Source: Thermoflexus sp.
GTDB lineage: Bacteria; Chloroflexota; Anaerolineae; B4-G1; SLSP01
Direction: 5' to 3'
DNA: 50,310 nucleotides
Assembly (NCBI GenBank): GCA_020722365.1
Contig: DYKY01000008.1
Coordinates: 1-50,310 of the forward strand
Position numbers and translations under genes: made by a program. The notes below the pieces were generated by a model. That model was not told the origin of the DNA. It saw nothing but the letters and a program-made list of their open reading frames with translations, and ran no database searches. This document shows positions 1 through 13,094 of the stretch, piece after piece. Each line of letters begins with the position of its first letter. Positions within the stretch are counted from its first letter, which is position 1.

Positions 1-128
1 ATCGGTGGGACACCGATGTTTCCATCCCGACGAACGGGATTGCCCGATTGATACGCGGTGGTGACCGAAGAGGCGACGACCCCTGAGCCTCGTTTCCATC
101 CCGACGAACGGGATTGCCCGATTGATAC
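1..128 (-). CRISPR. Partial CRISPR array truncated by the window start. Two identical 37-nt repeats (18-54, 92-128), one complete 37-nt spacer (55-91) and 17 nt of another spacer (1-17).
   Basis: GTTTCCATCCCGACGAACGGGATTGCCCGATTGATAC occurs identically at 18-54 and 92-128. The repeat contains a 6-bp palindrome (ATCCCG/CGGGAT). On the minus strand it reads GTATCAATCGGGCAATCCCGTTCGTCGGGATGGAAAC: a hairpin followed by a tail ending ATGGAAAC, close to the usual ATTGAAAC-type 8-nt handle. This orientation matches the adjacent cas genes, so minus-strand transcription is preferred but not proven. Confidence 0.9.
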
Positions 129-386
129 GGCCACAGGTAGGGGTTTACATAGTATTCACCTCCTTCGATGTGCCACCGCTAGGGGGTGGGCGCGGCGCAG
201 AGACCAGCCCTTGCCGTTCCCACCCTGCCGCGATGAGCGTTCCCGGCCTCCCAGAGGCCGACCTCGTCGCGGTTGGCGGCGTTTTGCCCTCCATCCTACC
301 CTCCCTTACCCATAGCGGTGGGGGGAGGCCGCCCCGCGAGCGCGACGAGCTATGTAAGCCCCCCTACCCCCCACCCTCGTCGCGGT
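129..386 (-). promoter_or_regulatory. Putative CRISPR leader between the cas2 stop and the first repeat, with a candidate promoter: -35 GTGGCA (171-176), 16-nt spacer, -10 TACTAT (149-154).
   Basis: Position between cas2 and the array. The only AT-rich patch lies about 20-30 nt upstream of the repeat. A 9-bp inverted repeat (CGCGACGAG at 340-348, CTCGTCGCG at 376-384) follows the cas2 stop. The promoter hexamers are only a moderate match to consensus. Confidence 0.35.
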
Positions 387-680
387 TTAGACGACGGTGG
401 TCTTGGTATCGCCCCGCAGCACGTCCGCCCCGGAAGTTACCTCGGTTTTGCCCACACACTCCGCGCACAGGTAATAAAAACGCACCTGGTCCACGCGCGG
501 ACGGATGACCTTCCGCACGGCCTGCTTCATCCGCGCCAGGTCTTTTTCCGCCAACAGACATTCAAAGACACTGTACTGCACAGGCGCGCCAAAGTCAAGC
601 AGCACGTTGTGCAGTTTCGTGCGGCGTTTGTCGTTGCTGATGTCGTACACCACCACGATAAATTGTCGTTCGGCCATCAT
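387..680 (-). CDS. cas2: CRISPR-associated endoribonuclease Cas2
   Basis: The translation MMAERQFIVVVYDISNDKRRTKLHNVLLDFGAPVQYSVFEC shows the typical Cas2 N-terminal beta strand with YDI and the SVFEC motif. It lies directly downstream of cas1. The tracked ORF extends to a TTG at 710; the ATG at 680 gives the canonical N-terminus. Confidence 0.9.
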   Translation of the reverse strand: MMAERQFIVVVYDISNDKRRTKLHNVLLDFGAPVQYSVFECLLAEKDLARMKQAVRKVIRPRVDQVRFYYLCAECVGKTEVTSGADVLRGDTKTTVV

Positions 681-10757: not shown

Positions 10758-11877
10758 GGTGACCTCCTTTTGTAGTGGTCAATAATCGTATTTCAGCAGC
10801 CCAATCACGCAGGGTCAGTTGTAAATCGGCAAAGGTTTCCGGCTCACTTTCGACCTGTCCTGCCGCCTTGATGCGCCCCTGGTACTCCTGCGCCGCAATG
10901 GCGGTCTGGTATCGCGCAAAATCCGGCGGCTCCAATAACTCCTGCCATTCCACTGCGGTCCACTCATCCAGGGAACCAAACTCTTCTTCGAACTGACTGG
11001 CCACTAGAGGCTTGCGAATTGGGGCGAACTTCGCTACTATCCGTCCGGCAGGCTGGCGGTCATGTTTTTTGACCTTCTCAGCGGCGAATTTCTCATGTGC
11101 TATACCGTGTCCACTACTTGTCTTTGCGCCAAATCCATAAGTACAGAAAAGCAACGGCAGTGCTTTTGCCAACACTTCCCAGTCTTCCGCTACTGTCACT
11201 AACAAGGTCTCATCGTCTCTGTGATGCTTCCATTGCACCAAAGGAAAGTACAGCAGTGAGAAAACGCTCGCTGCGCCGGCCGGCACACTTTCCATAAGGA
11301 TGGGGTTTTTGCCTACTTTACGCTCGCGGTCGTGTGGATTAATGATTTCTACGCCTTGTTCGGTGAAGAAACTAGGAAAAAACTGAAGCCGCCCGGCGAC
11401 AAATTCCTTTTGTTCTTCCTTTTCATTGCCGAGCAAGCGTTGGATGACTGGACGCGCCCCAGCATCGTCGGCTGCCAGCTTGTCCAAAGCAGCCCGTAAG
11501 CTTCCTTTCCACGCTGTTGGGGCAACGCAAGGTAATTGTGAGAGTTTGTCCCGCCGCAATGGATTGTCAATGATATAAAAAGCGCGTTCATCTTTGGAGA
11601 GATACGCGCCAGACAATCGAAAACGGAATTGAATAAACAGCGTGTAATCCGGCAACACGGTCAAATCTACAGTAGGCGCAACCATCCACGGCCAAAACGA
11701 CCACTCTGGGACATCCAACCTACGTTGTTCCAGGCGATGCCTGGCCCATTCTTCACGAATACTCTCAGCGTCTTTCCGCTCCTCTATTTTCGAAGCATAA
11801 TAACGTGCAGTTTGCTTGCTGTTGTCTGCTTCGGCCTCTGCTGAGGGAAGTATATTGACCAGAAATTCATAGCTCAT
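10750..11877 (-). CDS. cmr6: RAMP protein, Cmr6-like by position, with N- and C-terminal extensions
   Basis: RAMP motifs CVAPTAWKGSLRAAL and YGFGAKTSSGHGI. 375 aa. Overlaps the cas10 start by 8 nt and the cmr1 stop by 4 nt (ATGA). Confidence 0.6.
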   Translation of the reverse strand: MSYEFLVNILPSAEAEADNSKQTARYYASKIEERKDAESIREEWARHRLEQRRLDVPEWSFWPWMVAPTVDLTVLPDYTLFIQFRFRLSGAYLSKDERAFYIIDNPLRRDKLSQLPCVAPTAWKGSLRAALDKLAADDAGARPVIQRLLGNEKEEQKEFVAGRLQFFPSFFTEQGVEIINPHDRERKVGKNPILMESVPAGAASVFSLLYFPLVQWKHHRDDETLLVTVAEDWEVLAKALPLLFCTYGFGAKTSSGHGIAHEKFAAEKVKKHDRQPAGRIVAKFAPIRKPLVASQFEEEFGSLDEWTAVEWQELLEPPDFARYQTAIAAQEYQGRIKAAGQVESEPETFADLQLTLRDWAAEIRLLTTTKGGHHA

Positions 11878-13094
11878 TGAATACCTCCTGAAGTCAACTC
11901 AAGCAAATCTCGTCCGAATGTTTTCTGACTCGGAGATGCTGCAAAGACTACTTGCATATACTCCTCACACAAAGAACACAACTCTTCCACACCAATTATC
12001 GCTCGTGGAGCAAAACCAAAAATTACCAGGCGATAGTCTGTATCTTCCTTCAGCGGCATGCTAAAACAGATATGACTGGCTGTGCGTAAGTCATCGCTAA
12101 CTTTGACCGTCTTGCCATAAGCATTTTTCCATTCAGAGCGCGGCCCCATGAGGTTATCCAACGGTCCGAGCATTGATGGATCATCACTCTCCTGCCAGCC
12201 TTTCTCGTCTCGTAGCCAGCGCCGCAGTCCCAAAGGCGCTTCGCCTTTGTATCGCAGATCAAAGGCGCAAGGGATATACCTATCCTCTGTCTTTTTCGTG
12301 ACATTGCCACAATGTGCATTAGGCCGCATAAAGCGATGTAAGACATGTGGGGGCAGGTAATACGTCAAGTGGAAAAAATTACGCAAGTCATAAGCTGTGG
12401 ATTGCATCGGAGCAGTTTGGCATAATCCCCCACCTTCCAATTTAGTTTTGAGCAGCCTCAGACCCTCCTGAACTGAGGTCTCAGCCAGTTTCGGCGGCAA
12501 TACTAAATCAGCGATCTGTCCAAACCCATGCTGTAGTCGCGCTCCCAGTCCTCCATACTCAACGATGAATCTGAACAATAGAGCCAGTTGCGACTGCACA
12601 TAATCAGTGTCGTGACCCCGTAACACAAGATTGAGGGTCGCTGCACCATAGGGTACCTCTAGCGCCTCTATACTATCACCTTGCTGTGGGTCACCCTGGA
12701 AAACCTTTCTTAGCCAGTTCTTGTTGATATCCAAGGTCGTGCGGAAATGTAGCGGTGTTCGTTCTACATGGACAACCTGGAGACGGAACAAACGCGCCCA
12801 ACCCGTAGCGCCAAAGAGATATTCCACAGCCCCTAACGATTTCAACCCTGCGGCTAAAGCTTCCGCTTTTGCGTTCCCATGACGCAAGGTATCCTGGTAA
12901 GCTTTGCTGCCAAACTCGCAGCGATACTCTCTTTCATCCGTCGTGGGGTTGCTGACATATCCATCCAACCCGCGCACAATTGCCTCGTACCACCAGCGCA
13001 GGCTGCCCAGCAGCCCGGTCACTTGTACGCGGTTGGCATGTTTGCTGGCATCCGCCGTCCAAAGTGGGGTCACAAAATTCAAGCTCACTTGCAT
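11874..13094 (-). CDS. cmr1: RAMP protein, Cmr1-like
   Basis: N-terminus LNFVTPLWTADA...VTGLLGSLRWWYEAIVRG matches the Cmr1 pattern (G.lR.W.Ra). Second G-rich loop EYGGLGARLQHGFGQI. GAAGGAGG ribosome-binding site before the ATG at 13094. First gene of the operon. Confidence 0.7.
   Translation of the reverse strand: MQVSLNFVTPLWTADASKHANRVQVTGLLGSLRWWYEAIVRGLDGYVSNPTTDEREYRCEFGSKAYQDTLRHGNAKAEALAAGLKSLGAVEYLFGATGWARLFRLQVVHVERTPLHFRTTLDINKNWLRKVFQGDPQQGDSIEALEVPYGAATLNLVLRGHDTDYVQSQLALLFRFIVEYGGLGARLQHGFGQIADLVLPPKLAETSVQEGLRLLKTKLEGGGLCQTAPMQSTAYDLRNFFHLTYYLPPHVLHRFMRPNAHCGNVTKKTEDRYIPCAFDLRYKGEAPLGLRRWLRDEKGWQESDDPSMLGPLDNLMGPRSEWKNAYGKTVKVSDDLRTASHICFSMPLKEDTDYRLVIFGFAPRAIIGVEELCSLCEEYMQVVFAASPSQKTFGRDLLELTSGGIQ

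Follow-up and report, generated by a model that had tools for sequence, protein, structure and literature searches.

Closest described systems

[quoted passage not shown] Surveys describe III-C as having no cyclase sites and no known effectors, with an HD domain in half of the systems (PMC11229360), and the III-C Cas10 cyclase as inactivated (PMC12669027). Spacer acquisition from RNA has been demonstrated experimentally for fusions of a reverse transcriptase (RT) with Cas1, including Cas6-RT-Cas1 of Marinomonas mediterranea (III-B) and RT-Cas1 of Vibrio vulnificus (III-D) (PMC5513706, PMC6821258, PMC11014452). Toro et al. (2017) treated III-B and III-C together and described a clade 9 of stand-alone Chloroflexi RTs for which a complete operon was unavailable (PMC5541045); III-C was called a 'possible exception' to RT association in 2017 and listed among RT-associated subtypes, without detail, in 2019 (PMC6753606). 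The membrane proteins Cam1, Csx23 and CorA are activated by cyclic tetra-adenylate (cA4) or S-adenosylmethionine-AMP (SAM-AMP) from an active Cas10 cyclase (PMC11229360). Here we describe an RT-bearing type III-C locus at one end of a 50,310-nucleotide (nt) stretch of a Thermoflexus sp. assembly (contig DYKY01000008.1, positions 1 to 50,310; hereafter the window). We read it as a chromosomal, self-contained type III-C system, probably of an Anaerolineae (Chloroflexota) bacterium, with an RT-bearing adaptation module, proposed to be RNA-capable and cyclase-silent, and put the probability of this reading at roughly 0.78.

The locus resembles subtype III-C in its effector gene order (cmr1-cmr6-cas10-cmr4-cmr5-cmr3), in a Cas10 that matches the Csx11/Cas10c profiles and has lost the GGDD motif of its Palm2 domain, and in that no CARF/SAVED or other effector dependent on cyclic oligoadenylate (cOA) was found. 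Unlike most III-C loci, where arrays are absent (PMC12669027), it has its own cas6, cas1, cas2, RT and array, and unlike a distant Syntrophaceae III-C locus, which adjoins type I genes, it carries a conserved gene for a protein with two transmembrane (TM) segments after cmr3. As in M. mediterranea and V. vulnificus, a type III effector, cas2 and an array lie together and Cas6, RT and Cas1 follow the same order as in the proteins of those species, but here they are three polypeptides, the effector is III-C with a cyclase that its motif predicts to be inactive, and the RT is optional among close relatives. The RT is set beside clade 9 by the description of that clade (PMC5541045), and the operon in the window is complete. 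Like Cam1, Csx23 and CorA (PMC11229360), the two-TM protein combines N-terminal TM helices with a soluble domain, probably cytoplasmic, and is encoded within a type III locus; unlike them, it occurs where the cyclase site is lost, its soluble domain has no recognisable sensor fold and its gene is coupled directly to cmr3.

Against the literature surveyed, complete III-C operons with this stand-alone RT, a facultative RT within one Cas1/Cas10c lineage and the conserved membrane gene are new. The lineage fills what was stated as missing in 2017, when there were 'no complete operons' for the clade of stand-alone Chloroflexi RTs and III-C was a possible exception, and it offers complete compact operons (effector, adaptation, array) on which type III defence without cOA could be tested.

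Organization of the locus

In the list of open reading frames (ORFs) the locus is an uninterrupted minus-strand series from 13094 to 387, comprising 11 genes; beyond it come a leader and the first part of an array. In minus-strand order, with lengths in amino acids (aa), the features are:

11874-13094, minus strand: cmr1, 406 aa, Cas7-group RAMP, first gene of the operon; PADLOC Cmr1 'CAS-III-B,CAS-III-C' 2.4e-15
10750-11877, minus strand: cmr6, 375 aa, RAMP; PADLOC Cmr6 2.8e-60, Pfam RAMPs 6.5e-8
7548-10757, minus strand: cas10c/csx11, 1069 aa; TIGR02682, PADLOC Cas10c
6445-7548, minus strand: cmr4, 367 aa, backbone RAMP; TIGR02580 97.8 bits (cut-off 87), PADLOC Cmr4 4.5e-42
6066-6443, minus strand: cmr5, 125 aa, small subunit; PADLOC Cmr5 4.4e-24, 'CAS-III-C effector_SS' 2.2e-23
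5138-6061, minus strand: cmr3, 307 aa, Cas5-group RAMP; PADLOC Cmr3 3.2e-45, no Pfam or NCBIfam match
3844-5133, minus strand: two-TM membrane gene, 429 aa; no Pfam, NCBIfam or PADLOC match
2903-3712, minus strand: cas6, 269 aa; Pfam CRISPR_Cas6 1.3e-12 and Cas6_N 1.8e-10, PADLOC Cas6d 3e-33
1975-2889, minus strand: RT, 304 aa; Pfam RVT_1 1.4e-28, PADLOC CRISPR RT 5.7e-83
720-1787, minus strand: cas1, 355 aa; Pfam Cas_Cas1 6e-88, TIGR00287 281.9 bits
387-677, minus strand: cas2, 96 aa; Pfam CRISPR_Cas2 2.5e-22, TIGR01573
129-386, minus strand: leader, non-coding, between cas2 and the first repeat
1-128, minus strand: leader-proximal end of the CRISPR array; repeats 92-128 and 18-54, spacer 55-91, partial spacer 1-17

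Each of the eleven genes is an open reading frame of full length, and the first four overlap by 4 nt (cmr1/cmr6), 8 nt (cmr6/cas10) and 1 nt (cas10/cmr4), in agreement with the overlaps of 1-8 nt given in an earlier sequence-only reading of this DNA. Every gene of that reading was recovered on the minus strand, in the order it had listed, by profile match or ORF position. Its account of gene content stands, while its starts of cmr5, cmr3, cas1 and cas2 were replaced by public gene calls; in the public call cmr5 is 125 aa and not the 141-aa ORF beginning with TTG. Gene starts were refined from the calls on the public contig CCXGQB010000308.1 (51,538 nt), which over the range compared (window 1-3764) matches exactly apart from a 98-nt duplication and which extends 1328 nt past the window start. 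The pattern is not a product of chance, because strong profile matches were obtained for each gene and independent contigs repeat the entire order.

Effector module and Cas10

Cas10 scored 277.7 bits against the NCBIfam model TIGR02682 (Csx11; curated cut-off 248.95) and 1.8e-104 against the PADLOC model 'Cas10c, CAS-III-C effector_LS', and Cmr5 was also matched by the PADLOC small-subunit model that is specific to III-C. These profiles assign the effector to subtype III-C, as the sequence-only reading had proposed, and typing as III-B or III-D was rejected.

The domains of Cas10 are HD, Palm1, a zinc finger, a coiled-coil insert, Palm2 without GGDD and D4. In an alignment of 25 relatives (25-71% identical) the HD nuclease signature (H26, D27, H82, H125, D141) and the zinc-finger cysteines (C414, C417, C429, C432) are invariant in 25/25. 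The hairpin of Palm2, a segment identified by its Pfam model, has S755-P756-N-L in place of GGDD, with 'QVITASPNLLLAMVP' aligned to 'RVVYSGGDDLLALLP' (SGGDD) of the Cmr2 of a related locus; S755-P756 is present in all 25 sequences and GGDD in none. This replacement of GGDD by SPNL bears out the earlier description of a Palm-inactivated Cas10, the inactivity itself being read from the motif. An AlphaFold2 (AF2) model (predicted local distance difference test, pLDDT, 84.8; predicted TM-score, pTM, 0.86) places the SPNL segment within a beta-hairpin (E750-754 / E758-764) and resembles Csm1 and Cmr2 chains (Foldseek probability 1.0, E down to 8.6e-8, ~10% identity). No III-C structure was present among the fold or sequence matches of Cas10 to solved structures, and by sequence Cas10c showed only weak Cas3-HD similarity to them.

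The Palm1 hairpin (residues 318-330) reads N-R-I-Y-E-D-D-D-G-I-H-F, with Y321, D323, G326 and F329 invariant in 25/25 relatives, and D278, the Asp of the first Palm1 strand, is Asn in 10/25. Canonical Cas10 chemistry uses Palm2. For this reason, and because D278 is Asn in 10 of the 25 sequences, we treat signalling as likely lost; that Cas10c makes no signal is likely but unproven. Neither the operon nor the 20 largest ORFs elsewhere in the window contained a CARF/SAVED match, and those 20 are all housekeeping (isoamylase, subtilase, LexA, a two-component system, peptide ABC transporters, HflX, SbcC). The N-terminal 'GYRLGEVDLTIVRE' of Cmr4 retains an Asp at what we take to be the position of the catalytic Asp of Cmr4.

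The effector operon is also a mosaic. Identity to the related locus L081 is 38% for cmr1, 40% for cmr6, 56% and 69% for the two halves of cas10 and 72-91% for the downstream genes, with RT and cas1 at about 90%, while cmr1 and cmr6 are closer to locus L104 (71% and 69% identity). The G+C content, ~65% at 1-6 kb and 51% at 10-14 kb, parallels the change in identity to L081. Because the L081 identity shifts along the operon, cmr1 and cmr6 match L104 and G+C changes in parallel, the pattern suggests a recombination breakpoint inside cas10.

Reverse transcriptase and its neighbours

The RT retains an intact catalytic motif, R218-YADD-F223, within the 304 aa already noted in the sequence-only reading, and D138, D140 and Y219-A-D-D222 are invariant in an alignment of 18 RT sequences. 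An RT domain with YADD is encoded beside cas1-cas2 and an array, as is characteristic of CRISPR-associated RTs, and the RT portion of the PADLOC RT-Cas1 model matches it at 1.5e-53. More than 120 clusters of ~304-aa homologues (53-100% identity) were found, the named sources being mostly metagenome-assembled genomes of Anaerolineae and other Chloroflexi. In a neighbour-joining tree of 77 RT segments, midpoint-rooted, rough and without support values, the window RT falls in a monophyletic group in which every member has cas1 no more than 480 nt downstream; this group is one of three basal branches, the others being other Cas1-linked RTs and Cas1-less group II-like RTs. Together with the intron searches considered below, these findings support its assignment as a stand-alone CRISPR-associated RT that is not intron-encoded. 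A search of genome contigs with the RT alignment used degenerate patterns that were too general, returning mostly group II intron RTs and, as close relatives, only L001-L003.

The genes cas6, RT and cas1 are three ORFs separated by gaps of 13 nt and 187 nt and are equally split in all relatives. Of the 'split Cas6/RT/Cas1' described from the sequence, the three separate genes in fusion-domain order stand; the word 'split' does not imply fission of a fusion, the RT belonging to a large stand-alone clade.

Residues 290-304 of the RT (window 1975-2020) form a family tail with the consensus VDWLFSxYGPxY, in which L296, P302 and Y304 are invariant and F297 nearly so; speculatively, Cas1 or Cas6 might dock at this tail. 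A 166-nt insertion, located within 1798-1986 and separating the RT stop from the cas1 start, is flanked by 23-nt direct repeats of 96% identity (1798-1820 and 1964-1986), with imperfect inverted repeats CCCCGAAT...ACGAATAAACGAAT. L081 lacks the insertion, its RT-cas1 gap being 13 nt, and no second copy was found in the window. In these features the element resembles a small hairpin-type mobile element.

Recurrence and the optional RT

The full architecture, RT included, recurs in L081 (RT 91% identical), L001 (a truncated contig), L083, where cas6 has been relocated to the front of the operon, and L089 (a 5.7-Mb contig). The effector order cmr1-cmr6-cas10-cmr4-cmr5-cmr3 is also present in L081, L083, L089, L090, L092 and L104, and the order cas6-RT-cas1-cas2 is kept in at least 12 independent loci (45-91% identity). 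The pairing of the RT with III-C is real, recurrent and optional, and because it recurs in related Chloroflexi genomes it represents a lineage rather than a one-off.

The same adaptation module, with RT identity of 58-61%, adjoins other effector types in related Chloroflexi: III-A with CARF genes in L082 and L087, III-B with a Csm6-like gene in L084, and III-D in Ornatilinea apprima (L086). The module is shown by these loci to be a portable unit across III-A, III-B, III-D and III-C effectors. Nearly all related arrays have a 37-nt repeat ending AATCCCG-N5-CGGGAT(T/G)GAAAC, the exceptions being L003, L085 and L086. In L085 (1264-9781) the RT module lies beside an unusual RAMP cluster consisting of a 512-aa protein without a Pfam match, four RAMPs (one of them 614 aa long) and a membrane protein of the S_4TM type; nothing in this cluster was recognisable as Cas10.

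Within the III-C lineage about half of the loci have the RT. It is missing from L090, L094, L097-99, L100, L103, L104 and L107; L090 has cas6-cas1-cas2 without it, and L088 has no adaptation genes at all. A metagenome scan found the RT in 3 loci and found it missing from at least 5 distinct informative loci. Because the Cas1 of RT-less loci nests inside the RT-positive Cas1 clade, the RT appears to have been lost (more likely) or recently gained in this lineage. RT-positive and RT-negative sister loci with a common Cas1 lineage provide a natural experiment on what the RT contributes to spacer choice.

A conserved two-TM membrane protein

The 429-aa protein encoded after cmr3 contains two hydrophobic segments and no more, one at residues ~21-46 and the other at ~55-79. 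Its family, which has no match in Pfam, NCBIfam or PADLOC, is small, with 39 representative clusters among 1.84 billion proteins in an exhaustive HMMER search. The AF2 model (pLDDT 79.6, pTM 0.73) is built from a hairpin of TM helices, a domain of mixed alpha/beta structure and, at the C-terminus, three long helices. The fold had no match in PDB or BFVD at E<=1e-3 and the sequence none in PDB; neither profile searches nor the PDB/BFVD fold search found a CARF, SAVED, Csx23-type or CorA sensor domain. Cascade Cas7 chains appeared as fold relatives at a probability of 0.01-0.03 and were discounted as noise.

A profile of the family matches the ORF directly after cmr3 in L081, L001, L088, L089 and L090, and weakly in L083. 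The gene likewise follows cmr3 directly in 14/14 metagenome loci with upstream sequence, where the two genes are a few bases apart or overlap. It is present in every locus of this III-C lineage, with or without the RT, and profile searches found no homologue in III-A, III-B or III-D loci with the same RT module, nor in the distant Syntrophaceae III-C locus. Because the gene is tied to cmr3 and does not accompany the same RT module in III-A/B/D loci, its distribution assigns it to the effector module of this lineage and not to adaptation. An origin in the adaptation module was rejected on that absence and on its presence in L088, which has no adaptation genes.

Two TM helices would place both termini on one side of the membrane, and the close coupling to cytoplasmic Cas proteins suggests that this side is the cytoplasm. 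We tentatively suggest, as a possibility in which our confidence is low, that the protein is an undescribed seventh component of one lineage of Chloroflexi III-C systems, either a membrane tether of the RNA-guided complex or activated through contact with that complex when it is bound to its target, that provides a membrane output independent of cOA, with the optional RT recording RNA invaders. If so, a signalling-dead type III system would have gained a cOA-independent membrane output. The protein, the least expected part of this report, is a concrete candidate for a type III partner of a new kind, and one that can be tested.

At 3665-3860 lies a perfect tandem duplication of 98 nt (copies 3665-3762 and 3763-3860), which takes in the final 19 nt of the membrane gene, the 33-nt spacer that holds the ribosome-binding site and the opening 48 nt of cas6. 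The public contig has a single copy, so that the gap between the membrane gene and cas6 is 33 nt there and 131 nt in the window. A short ORF that is out of frame arises from the upstream copy; cas6 remains intact.

Array, leader and spacers

The window holds two repeats of 37 nt, not 38 (18-54 and 92-128), a complete spacer between them (55-91) and 17 nt of the spacer that follows. On the minus strand the repeat is GTATCAATCGGGCAATCCCGTTCGTCGGGATGGAAAC. The full array, whose recovery that reading had suggested, has 7 repeats and 6 spacers on the public contig. A degenerate, truncated repeat sits at the far end of the array, and the leader is placed at 129-386 for that reason.

Spacers 5 and 6 (L091 7100-7215, in public contig coordinates) are adjacent and have a 24-nt core in common, GACAAAGGAATC(G/A)ACGTCCTCCGC, which both carry in one orientation with an offset of ~18 nt. 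The two look as if they had been acquired independently from variants of a single target region.

Beyond window position 1, the public contig carries an ORF-less group II intron (L091 7244-8076) that starts with GTGCG and has Rfam matches to D1-D4 (RF02005, 85.4 bits, 7278-7661) and to D5-D6 (RF00029, 44.7 bits, 8001-8076). It begins immediately after ...CCCGTTCGTCG in the seventh repeat, and the sequence after the intron differs from the remainder of the repeat. Because its GTGCG start directly abuts ...CCCGTTCGTCG, its insertion site appears to be the hairpin of the repeat, at the end of the array away from the leader.

Proposed functioning and alternative explanations

In the proposed system Cas6 would cut the precursor CRISPR RNA at the repeat hairpin to leave an 8-nt AUGGAAAC handle, and the effector complex would bind complementary transcripts, which Cmr4 would cleave while the HD domain of Cas10 would cut DNA near the transcript. 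No cOA would be made, and defence would therefore be independent of CARF/SAVED effectors. The membrane protein would work together with the effector complex. The RT with Cas1-Cas2 would capture spacers from RNA as well as DNA, which is proposed because such capture has been shown experimentally for fused RT-Cas1 proteins. We infer both RNA-spacer capture and the loss of signalling from homology and motifs.

Several observations weigh against this account. In the literature surveyed, published RNA-derived acquisition concerns RT-Cas1 fusions and not a stand-alone RT of this clade; the invariant acidic Palm1 loop Y321-E-D323-D-D-G326 could permit some nucleotidyl-transfer chemistry; and exact-match scans with spacer cores, including the core common to spacers 5 and 6, matched no viral contig. 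The array is small, with 6 spacers, its last repeat is truncated by the group II intron on the public contig, and the 166-nt inverted-repeat element lies between RT and cas1. These last features, together with the loss of RT or cas1 from sister loci, would also fit a decaying, non-functional locus in which the pairing of RT and III-C is an evolutionary relic. We consider this unlikely, since each of the eleven genes has its full length, the families show no variation at catalytic and structural residues, the overlaps and short gaps between genes persist, and several relatives with the same architecture hold arrays of 10-39 repeats. The RT itself could be a group II intron leftover that came to lie beside cas1 and has no part in spacer acquisition: its best NCBIfam match is a group II RT/maturase (251.9 bits), and the ORF-less intron lies ~2.3 kb from it, just past the array on the public contig. 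The score is, however, below the curated cut-off of 300, and the match covers model positions 2-284 of 353, leaving the C-terminal ~70 positions unmatched. The RT lies outside the intron, with cas1, cas2, leader and array between them, no intron RNA flanks it, and Rfam searches of the whole window, relaxed to E<=1, found no intron domain. At least 12 independent loci keep the cas6-RT-cas1-cas2 order, with invariant catalytic residues. An intron-encoded RT is ruled out by the sub-cut-off score, the partial match, the absence of intron RNA from the window and the conserved gene order; a maturase flanked by intron RNA, the alternative that the sequence-only reading had held against itself, also disagrees with the tree, which groups the RT with Cas1-linked RTs. 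That the RT is a bystander of intron origin is hardly credible on this evidence.

The remaining alternative is that the effector still signals, the acidic Palm1 hairpin making a non-canonical nucleotide that the two-TM protein senses in the manner of Cam1, Csx23 or CorA. Y321, D323 and G326 are indeed invariant, and the beta-hairpin that holds them corresponds in position to GGDD, although in Palm1; the membrane protein occurs in strict linkage with this lineage of Cas10c. Characterised Cas10 catalysis nevertheless needs the Palm2 GGDD, which is missing in 25/25 sequences here, D278 is Asn in 10/25, and no ligand-binding fold, CARF and SAVED included, is recognisable in the membrane protein. 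Published surveys hold the III-C cyclase inactive (PMC11229360, PMC12669027), and we regard residual signalling through Palm1 as very improbable, retaining the reading of a cyclase-silent III-C system with an RT-bearing adaptation module.

Neighbouring genes

Directly upstream of the CRISPR operon an isoamylase/GlgX-like gene (13310-15379, minus strand) matches PADLOC 'C3a214 GlgB' at 1.4e-21 and belongs to the alpha-amylase/isoamylase family in Pfam; it is probably an ordinary neighbour outside the CRISPR system. Towards the other end of the window an SbcC/Rad50-like ATPase of 1220 aa (45533-49195, plus strand) is split by an intein with a homing-endonuclease domain, and just upstream of its gene the 7-nt unit CCCTACT is repeated 10.6 times in tandem (45456-45529).

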